Made by a program: the position numbers and the translations under genes. A model generated the notes under the pieces. That model was not told the origin of the DNA. It did no database searches and saw nothing but the letters and a program-made list of their open reading frames with translations. DNA of 64,000 bases, taken from contig CAZEKG010000001.1 of the NCBI GenBank assembly GCA_964512625.1, positions 217,413 through 281,412 on the forward strand. Direction: 5' to 3'. Position 1 is the stretch's first letter. Every line of letters starts with the position of its first letter. Source of the DNA: an uncultured Gammaproteobacteria bacterium. Lineage in GTDB: Bacteria; Patescibacteriota; Patescibacteriia; 2-01-FULL-39-33. Shown here piece by piece: positions 1 through 60,344 of the stretch.

Positions 1-478
1 AGCGTTTGGCCGTCGGGATTTGGACTTGCATAATACCATGCGCGTCTTTGTTCGACTTAGCGTGGATATTATGCTCGCTTTCCCGATGACCGATCGAAAG
101 GAGTAAGCCGGGAGTGAAATCATACTTCTTTTCTTCCGCCCGGTAATAGCCGGCAATCTTGTTCGCCAGCTCAAACTCCATATGATGATTGTCGGTCATG
201 ATCAGCTCCGCGTACGCCGCGATAAGCTGATCATCGGAAAGTTCCTTCTTCAGTGTCGCTGAAACTTGCGCCTCAGCTTTTTCCGACTGAACCTCGGTTA
301 CTGCCGGTTGCGGAATCACAACCGCTTCCGGAAACGCCAAAGGCTCTTCATAGCTCCGATCAATCGCTAACGGGACTTCCGTCAAACGATCGGTCGCTGC
401 GAAAGCAATCTGCTCACTCTGATACTTTGCCGCCATGAAGACAGCAGCTATCAAAATCAAGCAGACGCCGATTCCCAT
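1..478 (-). CDS. lytic transglycosylase (SLT-domain) protein with N-terminal membrane anchor; the C-terminal part runs off the window edge
   Basis: Minus-strand translation reads MGIGVCLILIAAVFMAAKYQ...ESEHNIHAKSNKDAHGIMQVQIPTAKR, carrying the ES...G(L/I)MQ SLT motif. The start is either the ATG at 476-478 or the one at ~530. Confidence 0.45.
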   Translation of the reverse strand, partial: MGIGVCLILIAAVFMAAKYQSEQIAFAATDRLTEVPLAIDRSYEEPLAFPEAVVIPQPAVTEVQSEKAEAQVSATLKKELSDDQLIAAYAELIMTDNHHMEFELANKIAGYYRAEEKKYDFTPGLLLSIGHRESEHNIHAKSNKDAHGIMQVQIPTAKR

Positions 479-904
479 CTTAGAGTACTTGCCCAGCAAG
501 TACAATAAGGGCAATAGGGATCTCATCATTTCTCGTCTCCTGTGCCTCGCTAACGAGGTCCTGGGTTTGGAAGTGAACCTTGATTGGCTACCTAGCCAAC
601 CTGACATAATAGCATATTTCAGCCATTATGTCAATAATCGTCAAAAAGAACCATTTTATTTATCTAAATTTAGATAAATTATAAAATAGCCCATTAAAAA
701 GGCCTTCATAAGCTAAGGATTGTTTAAAACGACTCCCAATAAAAAACCCAAGAGAAAGATTTTCCCCAGGGTTTTAATATTTTATTAACTATGATTATTG
801 GAAAAAGCTGGCGCGCCCGAACATAAGAATCAAAAATGTCAAACTCGCCTAGCCTTCAATGGTACTACCCGATTCAAGATTGATTTGTTTCAATCTTTAT
901 TTTT

Positions 905-943
905 CCCGCCTCGACAAGCCCGGCAAAAAGCGGATGAGGCCGG
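905..943 (+). repeat. 39-bp direct repeat, copy 1 (identical to the pyrG 3' end at 9553-9591); putative left boundary of the island
   Basis: Exact 39-nt match cccgcctcgacaagcccggcaaaaagcggatgaggccgg at 905-943 and 9553-9591, in the same orientation. Confidence 0.8.
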
Positions 944-956
944 GGTTACTTGCAAC

Positions 957-992
957 AAAAAAAAACTGAGATTTTAAGGTCTCAATTTTTTT
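957..992. terminator. bidirectional rho-independent terminator
   Basis: A-run, then hairpin tgagattttaaggtctca, then T-run, located immediately 3' of the minus-strand gene ending at 1013. Confidence 0.6.
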
Positions 993-1012
993 ATTACGAA
1001 TATTAAATGAAA

Positions 1013-3550
1013 TCATTTCTTGCCTTTCTTCGCCGTTAGTTTCTTCGCCTCGGCGATTATTTCTTTCGAAACATGACTAGGCAAATCAGCGACTTTTTCG
1101 ACGCAATGTCCGCCCGGATAAGCTTTAACCGCTTCACCACTCTTAGTCATACCCCAAGCTGAAACCATAACCCCTAAATCGCGCAGCTTATTATCCTCTT
1201 TTATATAAGCACTAAGATCGTCAACTTCACCATCCATAAAAGCCATAACCGCGCGAACCCTCGGCTTGGATTTTTTCTTTTTCCCAGCCTGAACCTCGTC
1301 ATTCAAATCAGCCTCAATTACTTCTCTAACTTTTACTAGGCCGAGATGCGCCGGCGTCCCGCCGCCGATATTAGACTCCAAGCCCTTCCAAACCGCGTAT
1401 TGCTCTTTCGGTCCCCAACTTGATCCGGAAGACTTAATAACGCCGGCCGAGCCGGCTTGAAATGCGGTTAAAGAAGATTTTACATCTAAAGGCGAAATCA
1501 GCTTGCCGGCTCGCTGAGCGATGCGAGTTTTTTCGGCAAAGGAATACAAAGCGTCTTGAAGAATAAAACAAGCAAGTTGCTGTTCGTCTTTCTTTGGCAA
1601 GCCGGAAGATTCGTCAATATAATTCATAGAACTACTGCGATCAACGACGAAATGAATATCCAACCCGCTGTAATCCTGGATCATTTTATTAGTCTTCGCT
1701 TCCATCGCATACCCCTCAGGGTCGTTCGAGCCAGTCCTAATATCCCGGCCAATCATCGTCCAGCTATCAGGCTCATCGCCTATTGACCTTTTAACCGGGC
1801 CTTTAGTCGTCGCTTTCGGGACTAGATTAGTCTCGACGATTTCTTGGAACTGCGTTCTTAATTTTTCTAAGACATTAGCATACTTGAGCCTAGCCTGCCT
1901 TATTTTTTCTCTTACTATCAAAGCTTCCTCGTAAGAACATTCTGCATCTTTTGCCCACTCCCTCGCCTCCCAATCTTTTTCCCTTTCCCGAGTCTCAGCT
2001 TCTTTTTCCGCTTCTTGCATTTTACGCTTCAAATCATCAAGCTGTTCCTCCGTCAATTCCGGCGCTTCCTGTTCGCCGAAGTCACCTTCTCCCGGCTCAT
2101 CCTCCGGCAGCTCATCAGGCATTTCTTCATCCGCGTTCGGATCGCCCTCCGGCGTTGCGTCGAAACGATGCCATTTTTTATCCTCAGTATTATATACCTC
2201 CGTCCAAGCGTGCCGATTGCCCGAATTCAACGATGCGGCGCCATTGCTATCCTTACTCTTGACATAATTGCCGGTCGCCAACCTGGCTTTCACTCCCGAA
2301 GCGGATAATAAGTTTATATAATATGCGTTAGCCACATCGCAATCGGCTTGGCGATGTTCCTCGATTCCCGCGAAATAGCCGACCGGATGATTCTGATAAA
2401 CCTTATTGAACGAGCTGTCATTAGAATAAGTCAAGTAATTCCTAACGAATCTTTTAAGCTTCCTAGCCTTAACTAAATTATCCGTCTCATTTTCTATTTC
2501 CGCGAGCGCTTTTCCGGCGTCAGCCCCCGCATAAGGCGATTCGACCGCTAAGTCATTTTCATTTACTTCTAGCCGTCTTTCGGCTATCGAGCTTTCCGCT
2601 TCGCCGATCATAACTGTAAAACTGATTGGGAATTTTTCCAAGCCTCGCGAATCGATAAGCCAATTGCCATTGCCATCAATTAAAAACTTTAGTTCATCGC
2701 TGGCTTTTACAGTCCTGATATCCGGACGATAGCCGTAAGGCAAAGGGAAATCAGCCAATCTTCCGCCATTAACTTTTCCGCGGAAAACCTTTTTTGAATC
2801 TTCTTTAAGCTCGATTTCCGGTCCAGCAGTCAGCTCGCCTCGTTCAGTCTTCCAACGGGAACCGCCGGCATGTTTATTATAAACATTTTCGCGATAATAG
2901 CCGCCAAAAAACGGATGAACTGAAAAATAACCCTTATTTTCTTCCCCTTCATTTTTCTCCATTTCATCCATAGAAGTATCCATATCATCTCGGCTATCGG
3001 GCGGCATTTCCTCGTTACCTTTTTTTTCCTGACTTTCTTCCTCAACTTTTTCTTCATCTCTTAATTTTCTTAAATCACTGCGATAAGCGTAGTTTAAAAG
3101 CCCGGCAATCTTTTTATTAAAATAATCGTTCCTAACGCTTGACTGAGTGTTAGGCGAGGTTAAGACCTGAAGAGCATTAACTCTTCCTTCCTCGGTTTCC
3201 ACTCCCCTCAATTCGCTTATAACATCTTCCCAGACTTTCGAAGGCGAATAATTGTCATCTTTGGCGGCAGCTAGCAACTCTCTGACTAATCCGTCATATT
3301 CGCTCAAACCGATATCCCTCTGGTTATAAGCCGCATCGCCATTTTTTAAAGATTCGGACGAGCTAAAAATCATCTTGTCCAGCTCCTTCTTAAAATGCCT
3401 TTCCGCCGGCGTGCCCCTTGATTGCCAATCGCGCTGAGCCTCGACATCCTCGGAAGTCCTTATCCGCTCACGCCAAAAACCGGAAGATTTTTTTATTTCT
3501 TCCGATCCATTTTCTAAAATATTAGCTTTATTTTTTTCAACACTGTCCAT
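1013..3550 (-). CDS. cytoplasmic transglutaminase-like cysteine protease domain + C-terminal von Willebrand factor A (vWA) domain protein
   Basis: Cys-His-Asp transglutaminase core (QADCDVANAYY...NRHAWTEVYN...WHRFDATP). vWA MIDAS motif DRSSSM plus GGGTPAHLG. A coiled-coil/acidic linker joins the domains. No signal peptide. Confidence 0.7.
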   Translation of the reverse strand: MDSVEKNKANILENGSEEIKKSSGFWRERIRTSEDVEAQRDWQSRGTPAERHFKKELDKMIFSSSESLKNGDAAYNQRDIGLSEYDGLVRELLAAAKDDNYSPSKVWEDVISELRGVETEEGRVNALQVLTSPNTQSSVRNDYFNKKIAGLLNYAYRSDLRKLRDEEKVEEESQEKKGNEEMPPDSRDDMDTSMDEMEKNEGEENKGYFSVHPFFGGYYRENVYNKHAGGSRWKTERGELTAGPEIELKEDSKKVFRGKVNGGRLADFPLPYGYRPDIRTVKASDELKFLIDGNGNWLIDSRGLEKFPISFTVMIGEAESSIAERRLEVNENDLAVESPYAGADAGKALAEIENETDNLVKARKLKRFVRNYLTYSNDSSFNKVYQNHPVGYFAGIEEHRQADCDVANAYYINLLSASGVKARLATGNYVKSKDSNGAASLNSGNRHAWTEVYNTEDKKWHRFDATPEGDPNADEEMPDELPEDEPGEGDFGEQEAPELTEEQLDDLKRKMQEAEKEAETREREKDWEAREWAKDAECSYEEALIVREKIRQARLKYANVLEKLRTQFQEIVETNLVPKATTKGPVKRSIGDEPDSWTMIGRDIRTGSNDPEGYAMEAKTNKMIQDYSGLDIHFVVDRSSSMNYIDESSGLPKKDEQQLACFILQDALYSFAEKTRIAQRAGKLISPLDVKSSLTAFQAGSAGVIKSSGSSWGPKEQYAVWKGLESNIGGGTPAHLGLVKVREVIEADLNDEVQAGKKKKSKPRVRAVMAFMDGEVDDLSAYIKEDNKLRDLGVMVSAWGMTKSGEAVKAYPGGHCVEKVADLPSHVSKEIIAEAKKLTAKKGKK

Positions 3551-3584
3551 AGGCTTTATAAAATCTTGATTATTTCATTCTTTA

Positions 3585-4199
3585 TTACACGCTTCTGGCG
3601 ATTTTCTCTAAAAAGCTTTTTACTGCTGTAAAGTCTATATTTCTCTGATGCTTGAATTTTATCGGTTCCTTATTAATATCTTTAAAATATACTAAACTTT
3701 TTAAGACAAGATTGATATCTAAGTCGGGAAACTTTTTACTAAACACAAGCAAGATTTGACTAATCGTCAAATCTTGAAAAATAAAATACAAGTCAACATA
3801 ATCCTTATTTGTCGCGCGACTGACGATAGCTGACAATTTCATGCAGGCGATATCGACAATAGAGGCAATATTTAAATTTTCTTCTTTAATCGTCGGACTG
3901 ACTAACTTATAAGGATAAGAGAAAAAACTGATTTTGATATTATTGTCAATAAATACAGTTAAAGTATCTTTTTCATCCTGAACCTTGACTACCCGATAAT
4001 CGGCAAAAATTTCCTTTACTTTTTTAAATAAAATAGCGGTATCAATCGACTTAGGAGAAAAGAAGTCAAAATCTATACTATCGCGATGCCCCAATTGCAA
4101 AGCCAAACCCGTACCGCCGGCCAGATAAAAATCGGCTTTGAAATTTTTTAACAACGGAAGTATTTGACGCCTTTTAGCGTCTAAGATATCATAGAACAT
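3585..4199 (-). CDS. nucleotidyltransferase, AbiEii/DUF1814-like (type IV toxin-antitoxin toxin family)
   Basis: N-terminal minimal-NTase motif LAGGTGLALQLGHRDSIDFDFF (GG[TS]...DxD), ~200 aa. Tightly linked to a small upstream ORF. Confidence 0.55.
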   Translation of the reverse strand: MFYDILDAKRRQILPLLKNFKADFYLAGGTGLALQLGHRDSIDFDFFSPKSIDTAILFKKVKEIFADYRVVKVQDEKDTLTVFIDNNIKISFFSYPYKLVSPTIKEENLNIASIVDIACMKLSAIVSRATNKDYVDLYFIFQDLTISQILLVFSKKFPDLDINLVLKSLVYFKDINKEPIKFKHQRNIDFTAVKSFLEKIARSV

Positions 4200-4208
4200 A
4201 AAATTTAA

Positions 4209-4478
4209 TTAAAAACGAGAACGAGTTAATTCTCTCTCATTAATATTTAAAATCAGCGACCAATAATGCAGCGACTTATCATTTAATTCTCCCTTAGCGC
4301 CGTAATTAATAACCGCCTTCTTAATGCTTGATTTGGGATAAAAATCGAATAGCCAATCAGTAGCTTTCTTGTCGCCGAAATTAAGCAAATTCAAGATTAT
4401 CCTGACCCTATCCTTTTTAAGGTCAAGCTTACTGAAATCATTGAACCAAAAATACTTTTTTATAAACTTTGGCGGCAT
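4209..4478 (-). CDS. hypothetical 89-aa protein, possible antitoxin/partner of the AbiEii-like NTase
   Basis: Co-directional ORF with a 10-bp gap to the NTase gene. I recognise no family. Confidence 0.4.
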   Translation of the reverse strand: MPPKFIKKYFWFNDFSKLDLKKDRVRIILNLLNFGDKKATDWLFDFYPKSSIKKAVINYGAKGELNDKSLHYWSLILNINERELTRSRF

Positions 4479-4525
4479 AATATTGCTAATTTCTCCCCTA
4501 ATTATATCACATTTTAAGATTCAAA

Positions 4526-5572
4526 TCAATCGCCCGCATACCCCTTAATTACACCTAGAACGGCGTCATATTCTTCGCTGGAACCGATAATCTCCCTGTA
4601 AGAGCATAAGCTGTCATAAAGATTATCATCAAAGCCGGACAATTTCTCATTAAGCTCCTTTTTAGCCTTTAAAACCGTTTTGGGCCTTGGCCAAACCTTC
4701 AAGCCGTTGGTTTGAAGCCCTAAAACGTCGATAACTCCTGGAAATTGGCAAATATCTATTTTAGACTCAGGGATTTCTAATCCCAGCCTCTCTTTAGTAA
4801 AAGAACGGATCATTTTAACCGACTTCTCCGCAACTGGCCGATTGCCAGCCAGAAAAAGCAAGTCATCATTATACCTGATATAATGCTTTATTTTCAATTC
4901 TTTCTTAATATGCCAATCAAGCTCGTTAAGATAAATATTGGCTAAGACCTGGCTAGTTAAGTTTCCTAAGGGCAACCCCTTGCCATTTTCGCCAAAACTG
5001 ACGATTACCTGGCTTATGATATTTGAAATCAACTCATTCTTAGTTCTCTTTCTTAAAATAGCATTTAAAATATTATGATCTATGTTGCTGAAATATTTTT
5101 TAACATCCATCTTAACGGCTAATGTCCGGCGGCTGCGATACAGCCGAAAACAATTGCCGATAAAATATTTCCTAGCTAAATGAAGTCCCTTATTCGGACG
5201 GGAAGCGTAGGAATGGAAGTAAAATATTTGATCATATTTATGAAAAAGATAATCGAAGATGATTTGATGGACGACCCTGTCCCTGACCGAGGCTACATAA
5301 ATATCACGCTTCTTCGGATCGTAAATCCTAAAATGCTGATAACCGCCATGGCGATAACGACCGCTTGCCAAGTCATGATATAATGAGTTTACTTCGCTCT
5401 CAAGATTAAGCCAAAACTCCCTAACTAGCCTTTGACGAAGTTTTCCGCGACGGAATTTTTCCCATTTCCAACATATATTTTCTTTACCAAATAATAATTC
5501 ATATTCTTCTATGAGTCTCCCCCCCCCCCCCGACTCTTTTAAAGCTTCCATTTTTTCACAAACTCCGCTCAT
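4526..5572 (-). CDS. diversity-generating retroelement (DGR) reverse transcriptase
   Basis: RT motifs: YIRYNDDLLFL (motif C, YxDD-like) and the DGR-typical LPLGNLTSQVLANIYL (I/LGxxxSQ). It sits immediately downstream of a TR that has a cognate VR. Confidence 0.9.
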   Translation of the reverse strand: MSGVCEKMEALKESGGGGRLIEEYELLFGKENICWKWEKFRRGKLRQRLVREFWLNLESEVNSLYHDLASGRYRHGGYQHFRIYDPKKRDIYVASVRDRVVHQIIFDYLFHKYDQIFYFHSYASRPNKGLHLARKYFIGNCFRLYRSRRTLAVKMDVKKYFSNIDHNILNAILRKRTKNELISNIISQVIVSFGENGKGLPLGNLTSQVLANIYLNELDWHIKKELKIKHYIRYNDDLLFLAGNRPVAEKSVKMIRSFTKERLGLEIPESKIDICQFPGVIDVLGLQTNGLKVWPRPKTVLKAKKELNEKLSGFDDNLYDSLCSYREIIGSSEEYDAVLGVIKGYAGD

Positions 5573-5975
5573 TTTAAAAAGTTATTTTCTATACCGCGAA
5601 ATACTTAAATTAACTAAAGACTTTCCTAAGGTTTACCGCTACGGCTTAGGAGAAAAAAGCCAAAACGCCATCTTAAGCATAATTGAAATTACTTCTCAGG
5701 CACTTTATAGCCGGCAACCATTAAAAGAGCCTTTGATACTAAAGCTTATCGGCATCATACAAACCTTGCAGCTTTTTATCCGCTTGGCTTATGACGAAGA
5801 ACTGATAAGCGAGCGGAACTTTTTTACCCTAAGCGATCAAGTAATCGAGCTAAACAAAATGGCGGCGGGCTGGCTAACCTCCGTTCGCTCGCCATCCCAG
5901 CCTAAAGTCGAACCCTCGCCGAGAAACGGAAGCCGCTGTTCGAATTCGCATCCACATCATCCCTGTTCAAGTTGA
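5511..5975 (+). CDS. avd: Avd-like accessory protein (four-helix-bundle / 23S rRNA-IVS protein family). Start uncertain; the 3' end reads through the TR.
   Basis: DFPKVYRYGLGEKSQNAILSIIEITSQA...LILKLIGIIQTLQLFIRLAYDEELISERNFFTLSDQVIELNKMAAGWL resembles the FPKxE+YGLxSQ+RRAAVSI...SLxELxxQL...GYI four-helix-bundle pattern of DGR Avd proteins. It lies on the strand opposite to the RT, TR and target. Confidence 0.45.
   Translation: MSLPPPPDSFKASIFSQTPLILKSYFLYREILKLTKDFPKVYRYGLGEKSQNAILSIIEITSQALYSRQPLKEPLILKLIGIIQTLQLFIRLAYDEELISERNFFTLSDQVIELNKMAAGWLTSVRSPSQPKVEPSPRNGSRCSNSHPHHPCSS
5519..5531. repeat. 13-nt homopolymeric C tract (G13 on the coding strand of the RT gene, codons 14-18)
   Basis: Direct read: tctc + c x13 + gactc. 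It encodes the SGGGG stretch of the RT. Confidence 0.9.
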
Positions 5976-6034
5976 GCTGGGAATCGTCGGAATTCCAATT
6001 GCCGTTCGGCACATTGCCGTCAGAAGCGACCGGC
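5914..6034 (-). repeat. DGR template repeat (TR), 121 bp
   Basis: Aligns to 6381-6501 with 15 mismatches. Fourteen are at positions where the TR minus strand has A. In the VR frame the TR carries nine AAT/AAC codons. Confidence 0.85.
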
Positions 6035-6232
6035 CTCCGTTTCTTATCGTCCATAATCTCTTAACCCCTAAACCTGCCGAAGCAGACCTATCTAAAAACT
6101 TCCCTTGTTGACGCGTGAGGATATGTGAATCAAAGCGCTAAGAAACGCCTCCATTGCCCTTTAGCAATGCTCTGCCATAAACTCTTACGCTACCCGGCAA
6201 ACCAATTGCTTTTTTATTGGAAGTCGCTCAAA

Positions 6233-6252
6233 CCTGCCTGCCGGCAGGCAGG
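6233..6252. repeat. 20-bp perfect GC-rich palindrome (cctgcctgccggcaggcagg) between the VR and TR
   Basis: The sequence is its own reverse complement. It lies 111 nt 3' of the target-gene stop. Confidence 0.7.
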
Positions 6253-6362
6253 TACTTCGTCCGCTTAGCGGCGGGGTCAACTTCATTAAAAAACAAGGTT
6301 ATATTAGCCGGCTTTAAATTCTAAATTTAAAAATAAATAATAATCAAACTGAATTATAAAAC

Positions 6363-9300
6363 TTAAATCTTGCGAGGGATCCTCACCGAGAAACGGAAGC
6401 CGCTGCGCGAATGCGCATCCACAACATCCCCGTCCAAGACGAGCTGGGAAGCGTCGGAAAACCAAATGCCGTCCGGCACACTGCCGTCAGAAGCGACCGG
6501 CAGGTCAATAAAGCGGGAAAAAGTTCCGCCAGTGCGCCTATAATCATCAAGCGGTACGAGATCGTTTAATGCTTTGGCTTCTAAAACGCGATCTGTAAAA
6601 CGATTTTGTAGGATAAGATACTCGGCAATAGAAGTGATATTGACCATTTCTAAGGTTATGCCTTCATTCAAATCAATAAACTCTTGCTTGATCTTTTCGA
6701 ATTCCGCTTTTTGAGCGCCTAAGGCTTTATTCTTCGTTCTCTCCTCAGGCGATTGAGAGGGAGTAATTAAGGAAATATATGGAGATTCGGGAATGCTTAG
6801 GACTGCCTGGAATAGGAGTTCCGGATCTTCGCCGGCCTTTAAAAAAGGGGCGATTTCTGCTTTTAACTTATCCTTTTCCTTTATAGTCATATCAGGCTTC
6901 CCGGCGATCTTCTCCATAAAAGAAATGAGACTATCGATATAATCCCAAAGATAAGTATCGGCGACTTGACCTTCCTGCCCATCTTTCTTAAATCTCGGCT
7001 TAAGTTTTTCTATAGCCGTTTTAAGGCCTTTTATTTGAGCTAAACGCCCAGGCACGAAAAGCGGGATCTCGCCCAATTCCATTCGCGATCCGATAAGCTC
7101 GATATCTTCCTCGCTAAGATTAAAATCTTCCATATTTTCCGGCAAATGTCCGGCCATATTCCTATCGAGCCAAAAAGTTACTTCTTGATAGGCCCGCCTG
7201 TCTTTAGATAATATTTCCTGGAGATCGACTTCTAAATCCTGTTGTTCCGGATTATTCGCTTGATCTATTATTCCCGCTTCCTTAAAAGCTTCATGATAAG
7301 GATTTTTAGCGTTGAAAACAGTAAACTGGTAATTGCCATGCAGCCTTTCCAGCTCGTCAAGACTGTCGATTATTTCCCGATCGCCTTTTCCCGACTCGAC
7401 TAGCCATTTTCCTTTAAGCTCAGGAAACTTAGCGCACTCTTTAATTAAGCCGACAAAAGTAAAAGTCAAATCTTCTCCTGCCTTGTCCGGAGAAACATAC
7501 CGCCCTTTCGGCGCGGCCACCTTATCGAGCGATACTTTGACCCTTTTCTTGCCTCCATAATCGATGAATTCATCGGCGTATTCGGGGGCAGCCGGCGTAT
7601 TATCTTTTATTTCCGCTTTTCTTGGCACTCTGGGAGATAACTGCGCCAATTCCTTATCCGTTATGATATCTAAGCTTATCTTAGGGCCGGCCAAGGGTTC
7701 CAGCTTCGCATTCCCGCCGCCGGCAATAAGTCCATATTCAGCAAAAAGCTTAATGTAAAGATCCTTGTCTTCGAGATAATCATCAGCCGTAAAAGCGGTT
7801 TCCAGCCATTCGACTAATTTTTCGGAGAGAAATGATTTTAAAGACTTACCCTCTCGAGCCAATAGGCGGTATTCTTTTAACCAAAGAAAAATATCGCCCG
7901 GAGTTAGGACGCTGCCCGAAATCAGCGCTTCCGGATTGCCTCGGCTCAAGATATTATCTCGTCCGTAAAGGTTTTCGTAAGCTTGGGAAAGCGCTTGGGC
8001 TAAGCGCCAAAGTTCGCCGCCGGCTTTAGGATCGCCATCGAGAACTTCTTCCGTAATATTCTTACCGTTTTCTTCCTTATGTTTTTCATTATATATCGGC
8101 CCTAATTCCGCCTTGTTCGCCTGAATACGATTAGAATCATCCATCAGGGCGACTAAAAAGGTTTCGAACAATTCCGGGTTTTCGGCTGACTGAGGGAAAT
8201 ACTCGACCGGAATCATTTTCATTTTTCTTTGGATTTCCGGCGTATAGCTGGTGCGGCGGAATCTTGAGCCAGCCGGATTCTGGGCGCCGAGCACAATTGC
8301 TTTGGATAAGACAAGGTCTTTCGGATCGGCGCCGTTAGTAGAATAGCCTGTCGGCTCTCCGGAGCGAAGCCGATCGCACAAAGTCGCTAAAGTCCCGATA
8401 TCTTCCGCTTTATTCGCCTCATCGATAAAAACCGCCAAGCCCTGATGTTCGGGAGATGCTTGATCAGCTGTCTTTTTTCCAGTCAAACCGTATAAGACCG
8501 GGCCGTAATCCGTTCCGCCCCTAAGATTCTTATCGGCTAAAAGCTCTCTATCAACTTTCATTCTTTCATCAGCTTCCTTAATAATCGGCGCCTCGCCGGT
8601 AAAAAGCTGGGCGACAGCCTTGGCTAAAGTCGTCTTACCGGTACCCGATTGCCCTTCCAGGACGACCATTCTTAAAGTATTGGCCGAAGCGACAGCATCT
8701 TCTATCGCTTCCAATATCTTATGCCGGCTTTTAGTCCACATAAAATGATCCGGCCCGTCCAATTGTTCTTTTAACTCTTTAAGCTCGCTGAAAACCGCCC
8801 TGGCTGCCAAGTCCGGATTTTTAGCTAAAAGCTCAGCTTGCCTAGCTTTATTTTCCGCCATGGCCGAGGAAGCAATAGCTAATTCTTCCAATACCGCGCC
8901 TTTTTCTCGGCCCTGGCGCAAACCCTCAAAACGCTTCTTTTGAAGCTGGGCTTCCTCTTCTTCCCAAATATCCTCGTCATTCCTAAGCTCTTGATATTTC
9001 GGCCAATTGCCGTTAACCGAAGCCCATTGCTCGGCATACTTTTTCATCCCTTGCTCATAAACTAATCTTGTTTCTTCATCGCTGTACATCTCTTTAAGTA
9101 AAGAGAGAATTCTGGCGTTTTCCAGACGAGATTTGAATTCCTGAGTTAAGGGATTTTCGTCATCGAATATATCCATGAGAGCGAGCGACTGGGAATCTCC
9201 AGACTCTCTTTTTTCTTTAATATACTCAAGCCAAGAGTCCTTAAAGCTCTGCCAGAAACTCCAAAGAGCTTCCGCTTTCGCTTCCGGGCCTTTTTCTCTA

Positions 9301-9428
9301 AGCTTTTTTAGGGAAAACTCCCTGATTTTTTTCTCTTTCGGAGATTGTTCTTCTTTAGCAGGAGTGATTTCCTGAGCTGTCTTCTCAAGCGAGAAAATCG
9401 ATTTTATTTTCGGGTTTTTTTCCGGCAT
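6363..9428 (-). CDS. DGR target protein: MoxR-like AAA+ ATPase with C-terminal variable (CLec/FGE-like) domain; no signal peptide
   Basis: Walker A VLEGQSGTGKTTLAKAV, Walker B/sensor VFIDEANKAEDIG (the DEaNrA pattern of MoxR/AAA_5), and a coiled-coil N-terminus. The C-terminus ...DGSVPDGIWFSDASQLVLDGDVVDAHSRSGFRFSVR is encoded by the VR. Confidence 0.8.
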   Translation of the reverse strand: MPEKNPKIKSIFSLEKTAQEITPAKEEQSPKEKKIREFSLKKLREKGPEAKAEALWSFWQSFKDSWLEYIKEKRESGDSQSLALMDIFDDENPLTQEFKSRLENARILSLLKEMYSDEETRLVYEQGMKKYAEQWASVNGNWPKYQELRNDEDIWEEEEAQLQKKRFEGLRQGREKGAVLEELAIASSAMAENKARQAELLAKNPDLAARAVFSELKELKEQLDGPDHFMWTKSRHKILEAIEDAVASANTLRMVVLEGQSGTGKTTLAKAVAQLFTGEAPIIKEADERMKVDRELLADKNLRGGTDYGPVLYGLTGKKTADQASPEHQGLAVFIDEANKAEDIGTLATLCDRLRSGEPTGYSTNGADPKDLVLSKAIVLGAQNPAGSRFRRTSYTPEIQRKMKMIPVEYFPQSAENPELFETFLVALMDDSNRIQANKAELGPIYNEKHKEENGKNITEEVLDGDPKAGGELWRLAQALSQAYENLYGRDNILSRGNPEALISGSVLTPGDIFLWLKEYRLLAREGKSLKSFLSEKLVEWLETAFTADDYLEDKDLYIKLFAEYGLIAGGGNAKLEPLAGPKISLDIITDKELAQLSPRVPRKAEIKDNTPAAPEYADEFIDYGGKKRVKVSLDKVAAPKGRYVSPDKAGEDLTFTFVGLIKECAKFPELKGKWLVESGKGDREIIDSLDELERLHGNYQFTVFNAKNPYHEAFKEAGIIDQANNPEQQDLEVDLQEILSKDRRAYQEVTFWLDRNMAGHLPENMEDFNLSEEDIELIGSRMELGEIPLFVPGRLAQIKGLKTAIEKLKPRFKKDGQEGQVADTYLWDYIDSLISFMEKIAGKPDMTIKEKDKLKAEIAPFLKAGEDPELLFQAVLSIPESPYISLITPSQSPEERTKNKALGAQKAEFEKIKQEFIDLNEGITLEMVNITSIAEYLILQNRFTDRVLEAKALNDLVPLDDYRRTGGTFSRFIDLPVASDGSVPDGIWFSDASQLVLDGDVVDAHSRSGFRFSVRIPRKI
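6381..6501 (-). repeat. DGR variable repeat (VR), 121 bp, covering the last ~40 codons of the target gene
   Basis: See TR. The VR ends 15 nt before the stop codon. A single non-A mismatch (TR C vs VR T) lies 5 nt from the 3' end, in an IMH-like position. Confidence 0.85.
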
Positions 9429-9530
9429 ATATGCTTAATTAATAATTGATGATTAACCGGCTAATTTTCAATACTGAAAAGCGGCCGATTTATAGACTAA
9501 TCATAGAGGAATAATAAACTAATATCAAGA

Positions 9531-11180
9531 TTATTGATTCAGCCGATTCTTCCCCGCCTCGACAAGCCCGGCAAAAAGCGGATGAGGCCGGAGAGGCCGA
9601 GACTTGAATTCCGGATGGAATTGAACGCCAACGAAAAATGGATGAACACCCTTAGGTAATTCGACGATCTCAACTAATTGCCCATCCGGCGAAGTCCCGG
9701 CGATAACCAAGCCGTTACTCTTCGCCATTTCCAGATAATCATTATTGAATTCATACCTATGGCGATGGCGCTCTATAATATTTTTATCTTTATAAAGACT
9801 AAAAGAAATCGACTCTTCGCTAAGAACGCAAGGATAAGCTCCTAAGCGCATCGTATTACCATATTGATTCTTCGCCAGCCTCTCTGCCTGCTCCGGCATG
9901 ATATGAATAACGGGATTAGTAGTCTCTTTATTTATTTCGGTCGTATTAGCATCTTCAAGACCGGCCGTATGGCGCATAAATTCAATCGTCGCCAATTGCA
10001 TACCGTAACAAAGCCCGAGATAAGGAATATTATTTTCCCGCGCGAACTTAATAGCCAAGATCTTCCCCTCTACTCCCCGCGAACCAAAGCCGCCAGGAAC
10101 GACTAAACAATGATAATTATTCAACTCACTTACTTTTTCCGGCTCCTTCTCATAGATATCTGAATTGATCCATTCGATTTCCGGCTGAACCGATTGATGC
10201 CAACAAGCGTATTTCAAGCTTTCAATGACTGAGATATAAGAATCAGAAAGAACGAAGTCCCCCGTTTCAAAATATTTTCCGATAATGCCTATTTTCAGTT
10301 TCGAACCTTGGTTTTTAGTTTTCTCAACAAACTCCCGCCACTGATTTCCATCCTTAAGCTTCGGCTCCAAGCCGAGATCAGCCAGGATCTTATCCGATAA
10401 GCCTTCTTTCTCAAAATTAACCGGAATATCATAAACGCTCTCTACATCGGGCGCAGAAATAATATGGTCTTTTTTAACATTACAAAATAAAGCCAACTTC
10501 TCCTTCCGAGGCTCATCGATCGGATGAGTCGAACGGCCAAGAATGAAATCAGGCTGAATACCGACATAGTTAAGCTCCCGTGAAGCCATTTGGGTTGGCT
10601 TCGTCTTCATCTCGCCGATTTTTGATGGTACAGGAAGATAACTAACAAGAACGAAAAGCACATCATTAGGCTCCCTAAGATGCATCATCCTAGCCGCTTC
10701 TAAGAATAAAGCGTTTTGATATTCGCCGACCGTTCCGCCGATTTCAATCAAGGTGATATCAGCCTCGGCTTTTTTCGAGGCCCGCTCAATCCTTTCCATG
10801 ATTTCATAAGGAATATGAGGAACCGCCTCGACGCATTTTCCGCCATACTCAAGATTGCGCTCCTTATTAATAACCGAAAGATAAACGCGTCCGGTTGTCA
10901 TATAATTATCGCGGAAAATATTAACATCGAGAAAACGTTCGTAATTGCCAATATCCTGATCAGTTTCATCGCCGTCTTCCGTGACAAAAACCTCCCCATG
11001 CTCGACCGGATTCATAGTCCCAGCATCAACATTAAGATAAGGATCTATTTTAACCGCCGTTACTTTAAAACCTCTTTCTTCAAGTAGCCGGCCAATCGAA
11101 GCGCAAGCAATTCCCTTGCCGACTCCTGACATAACCCCGCCGACGATAAAAATATATTTCTTTTTTTTCTCACCTTCCAT
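9531..11180 (-). CDS. pyrG: CTP synthase
   Basis: N-terminal KYIFIVGGVMSGVGKGI...; C-terminal glutamine amidotransferase domain; full length 549 aa. Confidence 0.95.
   Translation of the reverse strand: MEGEKKKKYIFIVGGVMSGVGKGIACASIGRLLEERGFKVTAVKIDPYLNVDAGTMNPVEHGEVFVTEDGDETDQDIGNYERFLDVNIFRDNYMTTGRVYLSVINKERNLEYGGKCVEAVPHIPYEIMERIERASKKAEADITLIEIGGTVGEYQNALFLEAARMMHLREPNDVLFVLVSYLPVPSKIGEMKTKPTQMASRELNYVGIQPDFILGRSTHPIDEPRKEKLALFCNVKKDHIISAPDVESVYDIPVNFEKEGLSDKILADLGLEPKLKDGNQWREFVEKTKNQGSKLKIGIIGKYFETGDFVLSDSYISVIESLKYACWHQSVQPEIEWINSDIYEKEPEKVSELNNYHCLVVPGGFGSRGVEGKILAIKFARENNIPYLGLCYGMQLATIEFMRHTAGLEDANTTEINKETTNPVIHIMPEQAERLAKNQYGNTMRLGAYPCVLSEESISFSLYKDKNIIERHRHRYEFNNDYLEMAKSNGLVIAGTSPDGQLVEIVELPKGVHPFFVGVQFHPEFKSRPLRPHPLFAGLVEAGKNRLNQ
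9553..9591 (+). repeat. 39-bp direct repeat, copy 2 (inside the pyrG 3' end; encodes RPHPLFAGLVEAG)
   Basis: Exact match to 905-943. Confidence 0.8.
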
Positions 11181-11289: not shown

Positions 11290-11733
11290 TCATAATTCTT
11301 CCACTGTTAACATGAACTCCGTGTCAAGACTATGATCAAGGGAAGCAGTAATCATAAAATCACCAGATTCCTTTACCGGCTCCTTAAAAATAATCTTGTC
11401 TTTAGATATTTCGATGCCTTTTTCCTTTAACTTGCTAACTACCTGGCTCGCGGTTATAGCGGCATAAAGCTTGCCGGAATCATTAGCCTTCGCTTTAATA
11501 ATAATTGACAATCCCCTTAGCTTCTCCGCCAGTTTTTGAGTCGCTTTTAAATCCTTAACCGCTTTAAGCCTTAAAATTTCCTCCTCTTTCTTTTGGGAAT
11601 TGACCGTATTTTCATTAGCAATAACTCCGAGCTTTTGAGGCAAGATAAAATTCCTAGCGAAACCTTCCGCCACTTCTTTTATTTCACCTTTTTGCCCTAC
11701 TCCTTTAATTGCTTTTAATAATAGGATTTTCAT
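11290..11733 (-). CDS. rplI: 50S ribosomal protein L9
   Basis: MKILLLKAIKGVGQKGEIKEVAEGFARNFILP... matches the L9 N-terminal domain. Confidence 0.9.
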   Translation of the reverse strand: MKILLLKAIKGVGQKGEIKEVAEGFARNFILPQKLGVIANENTVNSQKKEEEILRLKAVKDLKATQKLAEKLRGLSIIIKAKANDSGKLYAAITASQVVSKLKEKGIEISKDKIIFKEPVKESGDFMITASLDHSLDTEFMLTVEEL

Positions 11734-11800: not shown

Positions 11801-13075
11801 CTATCTTAATAATTCTAAAGCCTTATCCATTTGGGGATCGCGGTCCTTATTAAAGTCTTCCTCAGTCAATTTAACCTCCAAATCAGGACTGATTCCCTGC
11901 TCATCGATCGATCGTCCTTTTGGTGTAAACCATTTCGCGATCGTCAACTTAAGGCTTGAGCCGTCAGGCAAGCTTTCCAATTCCTGGACTGAGCCCTTGC
12001 CGAAAGATTTTTCTCCGACGATCTTCGCCAAGGCGTAATCCTGAAGAGCGCCAGCAACAATTTCCGAGGCTGAAGCGCTGCCACCATTGATTAAAACTAT
12101 TGTTTGATAGCCATTAAGCCTGGTAGCGGTCGTCGGCGCATGAGCGATCTCGCTGCCGTCTCTTAATCTTTCCTTAACAACCGGCTGACCAGCAACCCAC
12201 TCGCCGGAAATATCGATCGCCGACTCAAGATAACCTCCCGGATTATTCCTTAAATCAAAAACTAATTTTTTAACGCCTCTTGATCTCATCTCATTTATCG
12301 CTTGATCGACTAAAGGATAAGTATCGTCGTTGAATTGGCGGACTTTAACGATTGCCACATCGCCCTTGAATTCCCAACTAACGCTTTTAACATTAATTGC
12401 ATCCCTGACGATCTCAAAATCTTTCGGCTGAGTAAAGCCATCCCTAAAAATAGATAAAATGACTTTCGTCCCTTTTTGTCCGCGAATTAGCTTAACCGCC
12501 GCATCTGTACTCATACCTTCAGTACTAGTACCGTTTATCTTGACGATAATATCTTTCGGCTTTAGGCCTGCTTTAATAGCCGGCGTATCAGGTAGCGGGG
12601 AAACAATAACCAAAACTCCCGCCTTAGAAGAAATCTCGGCGCCAATACCTTCGAAATTTCCTTTTAAATCTTCCTGGAATTGAGCGGAATCAGTCGGCGT
12701 CATAAAAACCGAATAAGGGTCATTTAATGAAGCGACGATTCCGGAAACCGCGCCGTAAAATAATTGGGTATCTGGAACATTCTTATCGTAATACTTATCC
12801 TGGACTAATTTCCAGACTTGCCAAAATAGATCAAAATTAGCGTCCTTAACTAAATACTCGGGCACTTTGCCGTCTTGCTTGATAACACTACTAGAAGAAC
12901 TGGCGACAGACGGATCAGCACCCTTAATAACCTCTTGGCCTCCGGTCGAACCGAAAACATCCGCCTGACCTCCGGCGTAAACCCCGGCCGTAAACGATAG
13001 TAAAATAGCCATAGTTGCCAGCCAAACGCTGACCCGGCTTTTAATTATTCTTTGCTTTAATGATTGGAAATCCAT
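11801..13075 (-). CDS. carboxy-terminal processing protease (S41 family, PDZ domain), secreted
   Basis: N-terminal signal anchor, PDZ region, S41 core (...GGSASASEIVAGALQD...). Confidence 0.85.
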   Translation of the reverse strand: MDFQSLKQRIIKSRVSVWLATMAILLSFTAGVYAGGQADVFGSTGGQEVIKGADPSVASSSSSVIKQDGKVPEYLVKDANFDLFWQVWKLVQDKYYDKNVPDTQLFYGAVSGIVASLNDPYSVFMTPTDSAQFQEDLKGNFEGIGAEISSKAGVLVIVSPLPDTPAIKAGLKPKDIIVKINGTSTEGMSTDAAVKLIRGQKGTKVILSIFRDGFTQPKDFEIVRDAINVKSVSWEFKGDVAIVKVRQFNDDTYPLVDQAINEMRSRGVKKLVFDLRNNPGGYLESAIDISGEWVAGQPVVKERLRDGSEIAHAPTTATRLNGYQTIVLINGGSASASEIVAGALQDYALAKIVGEKSFGKGSVQELESLPDGSSLKLTIAKWFTPKGRSIDEQGISPDLEVKLTEEDFNKDRDPQMDKALELLR

Positions 13076-25915: not shown

Positions 25916-26854
25916 ATGGCTCCCAAAAAAACTCCAGTTGCGATGCCGGCTTCTATGCCTTCCATCCCAACTAAAACCGTCAGCCAGTCTAAAATCCTCC
26001 AGGCTCTTGGCTTAGCGGTTGTTGCCGTTGCCGGCTTAGCTTTCTTCGGCTCGGTTTTAATGAACAGCATAATCGGCCTCCAACCGAAACCAATCATCTC
26101 TGCTGTTAATGTTTCTAATTACACTCCGGTTTTAGCTGACGGAACTATTACAATTTCTTGGATCGCTCAAAATGCTAGCCAATATCTAGTTCAATACCAG
26201 AAAACTGGGGGAACTAACGATACTAGGATCGCCTACTCTCCGCAAATCACTCTTAGATTAATGGATTTACCTCTCGAAATTCCTTTCAAGGTCAAAATCA
26301 CTCCGAAAACCTCAAACTGGTTCAATCCTATTTATGGTTCTCCCGTTTATACTCAAGATATTACTATCGGCAAGTTGGCTACCCGCCCTTGCAGCAATCA
26401 ATGCAAAGTCGGCGATGTGAATTGTGATGGATTAACCGATTCTAAAGACCTAAGTATCGCCAACACTATACAAGCTTCCAACCTTTCTATTACCGATAAT
26501 AATCGATGTGCAGATGTTGATAATAGTGGTAAATTTGATGTTACAGATTGGCAAAAAATCAGCAATGTAGTTACTCTTGGCCATAACTACGGCAATTGGC
26601 CGTTTATCGCCACAACCACCTCAACAACAACCCTCCCGATTCTTGGACTTATTTGCCCAAATAGAATAAAGGGCGATGTTAATGGCGATGGCAAAGTTGA
26701 TGCTTTAGATATTCAATTAGCTATAAATATTTCATTGAATACTGCCTCCTTAAGAAACTACCCTTGCGCCGATCGAAATAACGACGGACTAGTCAATAAG
26801 ATGGATATAGATGTCTTAGTTAATTGCATTTTGTCTCTAGAAACTTGCAAATAA
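25916..26854 (+). CDS. secreted Fn3-like + dockerin-repeat protein
   Basis: Signal/TM segment. Four Ca-binding dockerin-type repeats (DVNCDGLTDSKD, DVDNSGKFDVTD, DVNGDGKVDALD, DRNNDGLVNKMD). Confidence 0.6.
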   Translation: MAPKKTPVAMPASMPSIPTKTVSQSKILQALGLAVVAVAGLAFFGSVLMNSIIGLQPKPIISAVNVSNYTPVLADGTITISWIAQNASQYLVQYQKTGGTNDTRIAYSPQITLRLMDLPLEIPFKVKITPKTSNWFNPIYGSPVYTQDITIGKLATRPCSNQCKVGDVNCDGLTDSKDLSIANTIQASNLSITDNNRCADVDNSGKFDVTDWQKISNVVTLGHNYGNWPFIATTTSTTTLPILGLICPNRIKGDVNGDGKVDALDIQLAINISLNTASLRNYPCADRNNDGLVNKMDIDVLVNCILSLETCK

Positions 26855-38719: not shown

Positions 38720-40201
38720 ATGAAAAATATCAAAGCTCTTCTTATTGGCTTAACAGCTATCGCGGTTTTTTTCCTCGTTTACCAAATCCACTGGTCGTAT
38801 CACCTCCCTTATCATGTCGACGAATGGCATCACATCACTGAAGGGATTAGAGTCGGAAACTATGGCGAATACCTAATGGACTATACTGCCAAAGGACTCT
38901 CGGACGGCTTTAGCGGCACAGAGTTCGGCTTCCATATTTTTCTTTTTATCATCAGCTGGTTTACTAACCTGATCAATATTTACCAATTCCTGCCGGCTAT
39001 TTGGGCGGCCATAGGATCGCTAATAATTTTTTTTGTAACCTATAAAAAGTCAGAAAGCTTTTTCGTCGGCTGGCTATCCATGCTCTTTTTCGCTTCCATT
39101 AAATCTAATGTCAACTTGATGGGCATTTGGTTCTTTACGCCATTATCCTTCGCCATACCATTTATTTATTTATTTTTTTATTTATTTACCGAAGGCCTGG
39201 AAAAAAGAAACCGGAAATACCTGCTCGGTAGTATCGCCGTCATGATTCTGCTTTGCCTCACTCATGCCATCTCCTTTCTTTTTGCCTTGCCAATACTATT
39301 AATCGTTTCGGCTGTAAATTACAAATACATTATAAAGAAGATAAAATTCTTCTCTTTATTCTTATTAGTCCCTTTAGCTGGTCTAATTTTCTATAAATTG
39401 ACTCTCGCCTTGACTTGGAGCGAGCTATTAAGCCACCTCTCCAGCCAAATAATATTCAAGTTAGGCTGGGGCGTCTTAGAAAGACAAAATCAACCGACGG
39501 AATTATACAGTTTAGCCGGCTACGCCCTCGCCTTTATCGGTTTAGCTATCGCCTTTGTTATTAAGGGCGAATCAAAAAAATATTTAGCCTACCTTATCTG
39601 GCCACTATGGCTCCTCGCCGAAATCGTTTTTTATCGACTTACCAGTTTCTCACCTCTAGCTCCATACCAAAGAAACTTTTATTACTTCGTCCTAGGCTTA
39701 CCCTTCTTAAGTGCTTTAGGAGCGAGCTATATCTGGCGAGGCGTTAAATTTTATATCGGAAAAACCCCTCTCTCGGAAATAGAAAAAAAATATGCCAAGA
39801 TTTTATTTATGATCATTTTTATTCCTGTAATTATCCTCTTCGCTTTTAAAGATTATTATAAGACAGAAAAGGCAGTCTCTCTTTATAAACTAGTAAGCGA
39901 CAAAGATATTAGCACTTTAAATTATTTAAAAGGCCTACCCAAAGGCAAGGTAATGGCAACTCCATTTATCTCAACTACTCTATACCCAATGAGCGGCCAT
40001 AAGCCAATAGGTACTTTAGTTTTTTACGGCGATCCGGAAATAGTAAATCAATTTTTTATGGTCGAAGATTGCGCCTTCCGGCAAAATATCATCAACCAAC
40101 ATAAAATAGACTATGTGATTTCCAAATGGAATATGGGTTGCGGCTGGAAAACTCTTTACAATAAAGACGATTACATTTACGATACCTCGATAAGTCAGTA
40201 A
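38720..40201 (+). CDS. polytopic integral membrane protein (possible GT-C glycosyltransferase / polymerase)
   Basis: More than 10 TM helices; I recognise no motif. Confidence 0.5.
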   Translation: MKNIKALLIGLTAIAVFFLVYQIHWSYHLPYHVDEWHHITEGIRVGNYGEYLMDYTAKGLSDGFSGTEFGFHIFLFIISWFTNLINIYQFLPAIWAAIGSLIIFFVTYKKSESFFVGWLSMLFFASIKSNVNLMGIWFFTPLSFAIPFIYLFFYLFTEGLEKRNRKYLLGSIAVMILLCLTHAISFLFALPILLIVSAVNYKYIIKKIKFFSLFLLVPLAGLIFYKLTLALTWSELLSHLSSQIIFKLGWGVLERQNQPTELYSLAGYALAFIGLAIAFVIKGESKKYLAYLIWPLWLLAEIVFYRLTSFSPLAPYQRNFYYFVLGLPFLSALGASYIWRGVKFYIGKTPLSEIEKKYAKILFMIIFIPVIILFAFKDYYKTEKAVSLYKLVSDKDISTLNYLKGLPKGKVMATPFISTTLYPMSGHKPIGTLVFYGDPEIVNQFFMVEDCAFRQNIINQHKIDYVISKWNMGCGWKTLYNKDDYIYDTSISQ

Positions 40202-40269
40202 TTGGAAAGTTTGGCGGCTTATCTTTAAATTAAGCCGTTATCCGTAAAGCTGAAACCAAAGAAAATCAT

Positions 40270-41985
40270 ATGACTGAATTATTTAATCGTTTAAAAATCT
40301 TCTTAGACTATTTAAAAAATGAGCCCTCCGCTTTATGGCTGCGGCTTTTTTTTATCTTAGCGATCTTACTAGCCGGACTAGTTCTAAGAGCATATTTATC
40401 TAATCAATGCGCTTTGCCCTATTCGCCTTATGAACTCTTCCAACTAAACGAGCACCCGCGCTTATTCAATCCCAGCCAAGAAATAGATTTTTCCCAAAAA
40501 GCGGCGAAATACCCCTTGAGTTTCTTACTACAACCACTAATAGACGCCCTACCTGTCGGGAAATACATTATCTATTTTTTAGGAGCGATAATCATTTATT
40601 TTTTAGGCAAAGAAATCTCTTCAAAAGGGTTTGGGGGCATATTAGCTTTAACTTTTTTCGCCTTCGCTCCAGACAATTTGCTTTTTTATACTAGTAATTT
40701 TTTCTATAGCGGCCTTTGCTATATCCTTAGCTGGCTTTCTCTTCTTTATTTATTAAAGTACCTGAAATCAAGGAAACCGCCTTATCTTTTTGCTTTCTTT
40801 ATTTTTTCTCTTGGTGTTTTATTATCTTATCATACCGGTTCTTACGCTTTTGCGATCATAATCAGCGCCATCTTTTTTTATGATCTTTTTTCTTCCGGAA
40901 AAGTCGATAAAAAAATGGCGGCCGCTTATGCCTTCATTATTTCTTTCCTTTTCGTTTGGTCGCTTATTTTTGATTTAAACGAATTACTACTAATAAGAAA
41001 CTCCCTAATCACCGCTTTTACGACTTGGCCAGCGGTTCTCCTTATAACAATCTTAATAGCTATAACCGCCATTATCTTCATTTTAAAAAATAAAGGTTTC
41101 CTATACCTAAATTATCCAACTACATACTTAATAATTCTCGTCACTAGCCTAATCATTTGCTATCCGACGTTAAGTCATTCAATTGTAACTTTTCTTTCCA
41201 GCTACGCTTATATAACGCCCACGACTTTCTCCGCATACTTTATTCAGCTTATCATTATAATAATTTCCATTTTAAGCCTCTTTTCCAAAGAAAATAAAAA
41301 CCTTAATGAGGCCGAGCAAATATTCTTAAAAGGCTGGCTGATCGGCTTAGTAATTGTTCTTTTGGGGCTATTTATGGAAGGTTATTTAGTAAGAATAATT
41401 GATTTCATCGCTCCCTTGGCTTTTATTGTCTTTGGTCTTTTTTGGTCAAACAAAAAAAGACTCCGAACAATCGCCGGCATCCTTTTAATTGTCATTATGA
41501 TTACAACTCAGTTAGCAATCATTTATGATAAGTATAATATTAGGCGATGCTATTCAAAAAACGAGATTTATTCAGCTCGAGAAGTGGCTAACCTGCCGCT
41601 AAGCGGTATCTTCGTTTCCGACTTAAGGACGGCGGGGCTCCTATACTATTGCGGGCAAAAAAATATTACCTATACCAGCTATTATCTTGAATTCCATAAA
41701 ATCATATTTAAAAAACCCGAAACCTTAAGGAATTACCAACAGAAATTTATTTTTTATAAATACGACAATATAGTCAACCACTACCTCATCCTTTCAAAAA
41801 AAATGGATACGCTTATTTACGGCGTTAACTTCCCGCAGCAACCGCTCAAAAAATCAATCAGGGATTATTATCACACTAACTACGAATTAGTTTACGATAA
41901 CGAGGAGTTAGAGGTTTTTAAGATCAATAACAAGCCTGAATACAAAACTGATTCATACACAACAGCAACTAACCAATCTTTTTAG
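40270..41985 (+). CDS. polytopic integral membrane protein (possible GT-C glycosyltransferase / polymerase)
   Basis: More than 12 TM helices. Confidence 0.5.
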   Translation: MTELFNRLKIFLDYLKNEPSALWLRLFFILAILLAGLVLRAYLSNQCALPYSPYELFQLNEHPRLFNPSQEIDFSQKAAKYPLSFLLQPLIDALPVGKYIIYFLGAIIIYFLGKEISSKGFGGILALTFFAFAPDNLLFYTSNFFYSGLCYILSWLSLLYLLKYLKSRKPPYLFAFFIFSLGVLLSYHTGSYAFAIIISAIFFYDLFSSGKVDKKMAAAYAFIISFLFVWSLIFDLNELLLIRNSLITAFTTWPAVLLITILIAITAIIFILKNKGFLYLNYPTTYLIILVTSLIICYPTLSHSIVTFLSSYAYITPTTFSAYFIQLIIIIISILSLFSKENKNLNEAEQIFLKGWLIGLVIVLLGLFMEGYLVRIIDFIAPLAFIVFGLFWSNKKRLRTIAGILLIVIMITTQLAIIYDKYNIRRCYSKNEIYSAREVANLPLSGIFVSDLRTAGLLYYCGQKNITYTSYYLEFHKIIFKKPETLRNYQQKFIFYKYDNIVNHYLILSKKMDTLIYGVNFPQQPLKKSIRDYYHTNYELVYDNEELEVFKINNKPEYKTDSYTTATNQSF

Positions 41986-52568: not shown

Positions 52569-52572
52569 TTTA

Positions 52573-53247
52573 TTATTTTAAGGATTCGCTTTCCCCGGCC
52601 ACTTCTCCATTTCTTAAAAATAAAGCGCCTCTAATCTTATCAGTCAATAATTCATCATTGATCTTTCCATTAGAAAACTTCTCTAATACTAAGGAAGTTC
52701 CGCGATTAAGACCTGATTGGAAGTCAATCGAAGCTGTTTTTATCATCTCTCCTTCAATAATAATAGTTTTTCCGATATCTCTGCCCAAGGATAAGCCGAT
52801 ACCTAAGATAGCTACTGTCGCGATTCCCGCCAAGAAAGAAAATTGGTAATCCCTCCCCTTTTTCTCCGGCCGAGCCTTAATCTTATTTTTTATAATCTTG
52901 TCCTTAACGATTTTTTTGTTACCTGATCGGCTTTTAAAAGCAACCGACTTAACTTTACTATCGGAAAAAACATGATGATTTAGGTGATGATCATCCGACT
53001 TCCGAGCTATTTCCAATTCATCATCCAATCCCTTCTTAAATTTATTAAGATAGTCCTTAAACCAAGCCTCGTTTGTCAGCCAATGGCCGTCATACTTAAA
53101 AGCCTTTAAAGAACCGGCGCCTATCAAGCGCATTAAATGAGCTTCGCTGAAACCGAACTTAACCGAAGCCTCTTTTAATGTTAGGCAACCAGGAAAATAA
53201 GCGTCTAAATCGACTAGATTGTCCTTTTTTAAAACTTTTCTTTTCAT
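52573..53247 (-). CDS. membrane-anchored protein with N-terminal excisionase/MerR-like HTH
   Basis: LTLKEASVKFGFSEAHLMRLIGAGSLKAFKYDGHWL resembles Xis-type HTH. One TM segment at about residue 150. Confidence 0.45.
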   Translation of the reverse strand: MKRKVLKKDNLVDLDAYFPGCLTLKEASVKFGFSEAHLMRLIGAGSLKAFKYDGHWLTNEAWFKDYLNKFKKGLDDELEIARKSDDHHLNHHVFSDSKVKSVAFKSRSGNKKIVKDKIIKNKIKARPEKKGRDYQFSFLAGIATVAILGIGLSLGRDIGKTIIIEGEMIKTASIDFQSGLNRGTSLVLEKFSNGKINDELLTDKIRGALFLRNGEVAGESESLK

Positions 53248-59334: not shown

Positions 59335-59567
59335 CGATTCAACCTCCTCCCCTCATCGGGGCTTGTTACTAAACATACATTCAGACAGAACAAGACAAAG
59401 TAACTTACCATATATCTTTATTTATGTCAATATATTTTAAGTTATTTTCTTATTTTTTAGCCTATTTTAGATATTATATATTAACTCCCAAAGAAATTTA
59501 AAGAAAATAAAAAGCGGGCTGTATTTCAAGCCCGCGAGGTGTAAAAAAGTACTGAGATCTTTGTCGT

Positions 59568-60308: not shown

Positions 60309-60344
60309 ATGCCTTTCGAATTGAGAGACGCTCCCCCAACTCGA

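Follow-up and report, generated by a model that had tools for sequence, protein, structure and literature searches.

The stretch of DNA analyzed here, 64,000 nucleotides of contig CAZEKG010000001.1 (the window; all coordinates refer to it), belongs to a Patescibacterium close to Candidatus Buchananbacteria and contains a block of accessory genes, 8.6 kb long, which is inserted at the 3' end of the CTP synthase gene pyrG, between this gene and a gene for an SLT-type lytic transglycosylase. The block is bounded by two perfect 39-bp direct repeats, one of which lies within the intact pyrG; its cargo includes a complete diversity-generating retroelement (DGR), and it encodes no recombinase. The junctions have precisely the topology expected of a Campbell-type integration at a gene's 3' end, with the reading frame restored. 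Conservative recombination at a pre-existing 39-bp site shared by pyrG and the incoming DNA, with a recombinase that acted in trans or was lost afterwards as the most likely agent, is the explanation that we favor and hold to be moderately probable; it would make the block an island similar to the cis-mobilizable elements (CIMEs).

The 39-bp repeats and the two tails of pyrG

The features that define the two junctions, together with the genes upstream of pyrG, were the following:

905–943, minus strand: repeat copy B (attR-like), intergenic, 39-mer identical to copy A
9553–9591, minus strand: repeat copy A (attL-like), within pyrG, coding for residues 531–543 (RPHPLFAGLVEAG)
9531–11180, minus strand: pyrG, CTP synthase, 549 aa, intact (Pfam CTP_synth_N, 2.9e-105)
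530–904, minus strand: presumed native pyrG-SLT spacer of 375 bp with the candidate displaced pyrG tail, terminator-like hairpins and a promoter-like site
1–529, minus strand: SLT-type lytic transglycosylase gene, 5' part, running off the window; a homologue follows pyrG in five related genomes (L009, L010, L011, L012 and L036)
11290–11733, minus strand: rplI (ribosomal protein L9), upstream of pyrG, syntenic with relatives
11801–13075, minus strand: S41 peptidase gene, upstream of rplI, syntenic with relatives

The 39-mer (CCCGCCTCGACAAGCCCGGCAAAAAGCGGATGAGGCCGG in the plus-strand reading) was exact at both 905–943 and 9553–9591, as the original prediction made from the sequence had stated, and these were its only matches in the window even with three mismatches allowed. 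Not one of 100 shuffled sequences contained any 39-mer match, and a blastn-short search for a third, partial copy gave nothing above 16 nt in the window. The register of the repeat could be extended by at most 3 bases, to 42 nt at 98% identity, after which the identity ended sharply; local alignment of the 150-nt flanks on either side of the repeats was no better than that of shuffled sequences. A decayed longer duplication was rejected, the best upstream match being out of register and located within the gene for an 845-aa protein of the block. The position of copy B in intergenic DNA, 3' of the terminator-like hairpin of that same gene, was confirmed.

The secondary structure of the 39-mer was no better than that of shuffles. 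Its outermost eight bases (CCNGCCTC...GAGGCNGG) are reverse-complementary at seven of eight positions (p ~3.5e-4 against shuffles), a post hoc observation on a stretch that is also constrained by coding.

Copy A had been taken for the last residues of CTP synthase, but six codons (KNRLNQ) and the stop codon at 9531–9533 come after it. Behind copy B the pyrG frame runs on as the short basic tail KIKIETNQS with a stop at 874–876. The pyrG product is of full length (549 aa, compared to 528–566 aa in relatives), the reading frame being kept intact by a new short tail, KNRLNQ; eight homologues have tails of a similar form, xNR[LIM]. Comparison with the C-terminal tails of 120 pyrG homologues was not decisive for the ancestral form because both tails are plausible; we infer it, with KIKIETNQS as the candidate for the displaced original tail.

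The DNA of the 39-mer corresponds to the most conserved C-terminal motif of pyrG, and many of its third codon positions differ in every relative. The 39/39 identity of the two copies is therefore not a product of convergence, and the second copy must come either from the sequence of this very lineage or from an element adapted to it.

Insertion between pyrG and the SLT gene

The host pyrG forms a cluster of its own, with the next relatives 76–77% identical. Upstream of it, the order S41 peptidase-L9-pyrG was kept in all three relatives examined, and in two of them (L002 and L003) the synteny reached further, through MetRS, Colicin V, TatD, PEGA and EPSP synthase genes. Downstream, many relatives have a convergent L27 gene directly after pyrG; in the five Buchananbacteria-type genomes listed above the SLT-domain gene lies behind pyrG in the same orientation, with no more than one small unannotated open reading frame (ORF) in the gap, and L27 comes after the SLT gene in four of them (the contig of the fifth, L011, ends first). 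The pyrG-SLT order in these five genomes and the preserved upstream synteny identify the block as an insertion at the pyrG 3' end, in agreement with the original prediction. The empty site which it had anticipated, pyrG followed by the SLT gene, thus exists at the level of the family (72–77% pyrG identity), and no strain-level empty site was found in the collections searched.

A strong promoter-like site is situated at 634–606, ahead of the SLT gene. In three of the relatives the small ORFs of the pyrG-SLT spacer (L011:11738-12106, L012:11682-12230 and L036:11670-12320) differ from each other and have no Pfam match; in this clade, the 3' flank of pyrG may act locally as a hot spot at which accessory DNA accumulates.

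Gene content of the block

Between the repeats, the following features were recognized:

6363–9428, minus strand: DGR target gene, 1021 aa, AAA_5 (MoxR-like) NTPase, variable region at the C terminus
6381–6501, minus strand: variable repeat (VR), 5–45 codons before the stop of the target gene
5914–6034, minus strand: template repeat (TR) of 121 nt, differing from the VR at 15 positions
5511–5975, plus strand: Avd (bAvd-like), antisense to the other genes of the cassette, with an overlap to the TR and to the 5' end of the reverse transcriptase gene
4526–5572, minus strand: DGR reverse transcriptase (RT; RVT_1, 9.8e-19)
3585–4478, minus strand: toxin-antitoxin (TA) pair, DUF6922 (4209–4478) and AbiEii nucleotidyltransferase (3585–4199)
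1013–3550, minus strand: 845-aa protein with a transglutaminase-like core (residues 351–465) and a C-terminal VWA-like domain (residues ~630–823)

The AAA_5 target with its VR, the TR, Avd and RT make up a complete DGR, and 14 of the 15 mismatches between TR and VR fall on TR adenines. The Avd profile match (bAvd, 3.4e-8, 34.4 bits) is below the curated Pfam cut-off of 40; it is backed by 65–69% identity to the Avd genes of two related cassettes (L004 and L006), in which the gene is likewise antisense and overlaps the TR and the RT start, so that this layout is conserved in the DGR lineage. All genes of the block had been described as co-directional, which does not hold for Avd on the plus strand. 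The same two cassettes contain the closest RTs (49–54% identity) in the same arrangement of AAA_5 target, opposite-strand Avd, RT and VWA protein; a further locus on a short contig (L173) shows only the half from RT to VWA. RT relatives in viral contigs are 27–36% identical at most.

In the L004 cassette both the VR and the TR are closely followed, on their downstream side, by a second direct repeat of 89 nt (92% identity; 9040–9128 and 9537–9625), which may be a conserved cis element of DGRs. The window showed no second repeat of comparable length.

The slot between RT and the VWA gene is empty in L004 and L006, occupied by a Polbeta(MNT)/HepT pair in L173 (1479–2146) and by DUF6922 and AbiEii in the window. 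With a GC content of 33–34%, compared to 39–46% in the neighboring genes, the TA pair of the window is a later addition to the cassette. The presence of different TA pairs in one slot suggests that insertions recur at this point or, alternatively, that TA pairs are functionally associated with the cassette.

In the 845-aa protein Pfam recognized the transglutaminase core only. Its C-terminal 260 residues, however, align to the part that Pfam assigns to VWA in the proteins that follow RT in related cassettes, and a DRSSS stretch, which can be read as the metal-binding MIDAS (metal ion-dependent adhesion site) motif, is kept. The earlier label "transglutaminase-vWA" is therefore retained, by homology to the VWA proteins of the cassettes, and the protein counts as the partner of the DGR-diversified AAA_5 protein.

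Mechanism of acquisition

According to the favored explanation, a circular incoming DNA carrying the 39-bp sequence would have recombined with the identical sequence of pyrG. The crossover would leave one 39-mer at each junction, the attL-like copy at 9553–9591 and the attR-like copy at 905–943, provide pyrG with a new six-codon tail from the element and leave the former tail, KIKIETNQS, displaced at the distal junction. A site-specific recombinase encoded elsewhere or since lost would most likely be the enzyme, and the remaining block an integrase-less island, comparable to a CIME. The accessory nature of the cargo, which in other genomes is placed at unrelated loci (after dnaX, before dnaE and before a tRNA synthetase gene), is in line with this explanation.

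Machinery of this kind was searched for in the ORFs of the block with Pfam, PHROGs and PADLOC and in 39 further ORFs of the window (at least 100 aa, picked as genes) with Pfam, supplemented by PHROGs where Pfam gave nothing. Neither set contained an integrase, resolvase, transposase or excisionase domain, and the original prediction was correct in that the block itself has no recombinase; it also lacks transfer genes. No integrase-bearing element sharing the att-like site was present within the 64 kb of the window. A possible hidden integrase/excisionase pair at 51336–53247, consisting of a 410-aa ORF and a protein with a weak HTH_17 match, was rejected, as the 410-aa protein matches designed Kelch-type beta-propellers and not recombinases. 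With no recombinase present, the entry route of the block is inferred and not demonstrated.

Several further results weigh, like the missing recombinase, against integration at an attachment site. The composition of the block is host-like (GC 42.6% against 40.8%, tetranucleotide distance within the range of the window), and megablast against phage and plasmid records gave no match to it. The exact 39-mer had no match in 185,579 representative genomes, 241 million metagenome records and IMG/VR, nor did a degenerate pattern of the pyrG tail have any in viral contigs, and the genome and metagenome collections searched yielded neither an excised nor an empty form of this strain. A second copy (at least 15 nt) of the gene's own 3' end within 10 kb was found in none of 56 Patescibacteria pyrG loci, and pyrG is therefore not a recurrent target in this sample. 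Among related DGR loci, none of 30 (matching any query protein) adjoins pyrG, and none of the 27 with adequate flanks has flanking repeats of at least 25 bp; four of these 27 show flanking matches of only 20–24 nt. In the literature searched there was nothing on pyrG as an attachment site.

The attL/attR reading of the repeats, proposed originally from the sequence, is thus supported in part: the exact repeats, the insertion and the intact pyrG with its pyrG-like new tail speak for it, as do the lineage-specific third codon positions of the 39-mer and, post hoc, its reverse-complementary ends; the missing recombinase, the 56 pyrG loci free of duplicated ends and the related DGRs free of flanking repeats speak against it. 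It is the best reading available, but neither a recombinase, its key component, nor a second example was found.

The host-like composition, which suggests a donor from the same lineage, would be expected from a RecA-dependent single crossover with a circle of the same or a very close lineage, carrying a short 3' fragment of pyrG beside the DGR cassette and needing no dedicated recombinase. Such a crossover predicts the observed junction topology and the 39/39 identity to a host-specific codon choice, and it agrees with the absence of a recombinase from the window, which also encodes DprA, a protein of the DNA-uptake/natural transformation pathway. A homology of 39 bp is, however, very short for this route, near the minimum for RecA-mediated recombination, and the flanks on both sides do not visibly extend it; moreover, a chance fragment is unlikely to stop exactly at ends that are reverse-complementary in seven of eight bases and to restore a plausible pyrG tail. 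This route is considered rather unlikely.

The perfect identity and sharp borders of the repeats, and the lack of any att-type partner sequence in the genome, metagenome and viral collections, would also follow if the 39-mer had not been shared beforehand but was duplicated in situ, with linear DNA entering a staggered break in pyrG whose gaps were then filled in by repair. The target-site duplications of known prokaryotic transposons have a length of 2–15 bp, and 39 bp is far above that. Furthermore, neither a transposase nor a Cas1-like integrase was found and the block ends have no terminal inverted repeats (score under the shuffle mean), which makes a transposon unlikely. Finally, a random insert end would not be expected to produce a new pyrG tail that looks like genuine ones. 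An in-situ duplication is, accordingly, judged improbable.

The contig itself (284,256 bp) was assembled from a metagenome, other Patescibacteria entries listed with it being labelled MAG, and a second assembly of the same strain was absent from the collections searched, so a separate molecule or a strain variant sharing the 39-mer might have been threaded into the chromosome by the assembler. But both junctions are held by one contig, and the block has a composition matching the host and no replication or partition genes; even then, the element would share the 39-bp site with pyrG, which still points to an integrative relationship. We regard such an artefact as very unlikely. That the 39-mer might be a generic dispersed repeat or a chance match unrelated to the block can be practically dismissed: instead of occurring at many loci, it is present in two copies in 64 kb, with none expected by chance and no partial copies, and is absent from the genome, metagenome and viral collections.

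Relation to known systems

Integrative islands residing in the 3' ends of conserved genes are well known, such as ICESt1 and ICESt3 in fda of Streptococcus thermophilus and others in guaA and in tRNA genes. The block resembles them in its perfect junction repeats, in the use of the 3' end of a housekeeping gene with a restored frame, in its accessory cargo and in its absence from the same site in relatives. It differs from them in the lack of an integrase and excisionase, in the host-like composition and in that no second instance was found in 56 pyrG loci. The CIMEs are att-flanked islands that have no recombination or transfer genes of their own and are mobilized by a related integrative and conjugative element. 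With its flanking att-like repeats and without a recombinase or transfer gene the block is similar to them, but a cognate integrase-bearing element at the same site is not known, and its mobilization is entirely hypothetical.

The cargo recalls the vWA-MoxR/DGR conflict or sensor systems described mainly from multicellular bacteria (Kaur et al., 2020, PMC7159879; Doré et al., 2024, PMC10907252). The common traits are the DGR, a MoxR-type AAA_5 protein, a VWA domain, a domain of a peptidase superfamily (transglutaminase-like) and a variable region at the C terminus that forms the diversified, ligand-binding part. In contrast to these systems, the VR of the window is on the AAA protein and not on the vWA protein, transglutaminase and VWA are joined in one protein, no VMAP (vWA-MoxR-associated protein) domain was detected, and the host is a Patescibacterium and not a multicellular bacterium. 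The mobility of DGRs in the same two papers is attributed to transposons and not to att-flanked islands, and published work points to phages and transposons as the means of DGR movement (PMC10907252).

The movement of DGR cassettes among the small, recombination-poor genomes of the Patescibacteria is poorly documented, and the clean insertion into a housekeeping gene, with its att-like duplication of 39 bp, represents a concrete and datable case of island-type acquisition. It offers the pyrG 3' end as a candidate target site that can be searched for in population data and extends the vWA-MoxR/DGR sensor theme to a Patescibacterium. The advance is a modest one: an att-flanked, integrase-less island is of a known kind, here with a DGR cassette in an unusual host, and the current understanding is not overturned. 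A more speculative view, to which we give little credence, is that the block is still mobile as an integrase-less DGR sensor/conflict satellite, which would be moved in trans by the recombinase of a co-resident element recognizing the conserved RPHPLF...EAG-coding end of pyrG, with the 39-mer and its reverse-complementary ends (seven of eight bases) as the site. If this were true, DGRs would have a route of spread that needs neither a phage nor a transposon, and, to our knowledge, neither an att site nor a cis-mobilizable island would have been described from the Patescibacteria before.

Other features of the window

Three further regions of the window deserve mention. A cluster of proteins with Ig domains and bacterial TSP3 repeats at 58237–61934 deviates more than any other part of the window in its tetranucleotide profile (distance 0.41, compared to ~0.13–0.31 elsewhere), which may be driven by the repeats or indicate foreign DNA. 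An ORF of 1797 aa at 45604–50997 has no Pfam match, and several large ORFs nearby (38720–44371) are likewise without significant matches. Finally, a 312-aa protein encoded at 25916–26854, amid housekeeping genes of this Patescibacterium, carries a C-terminal type I dockerin domain.

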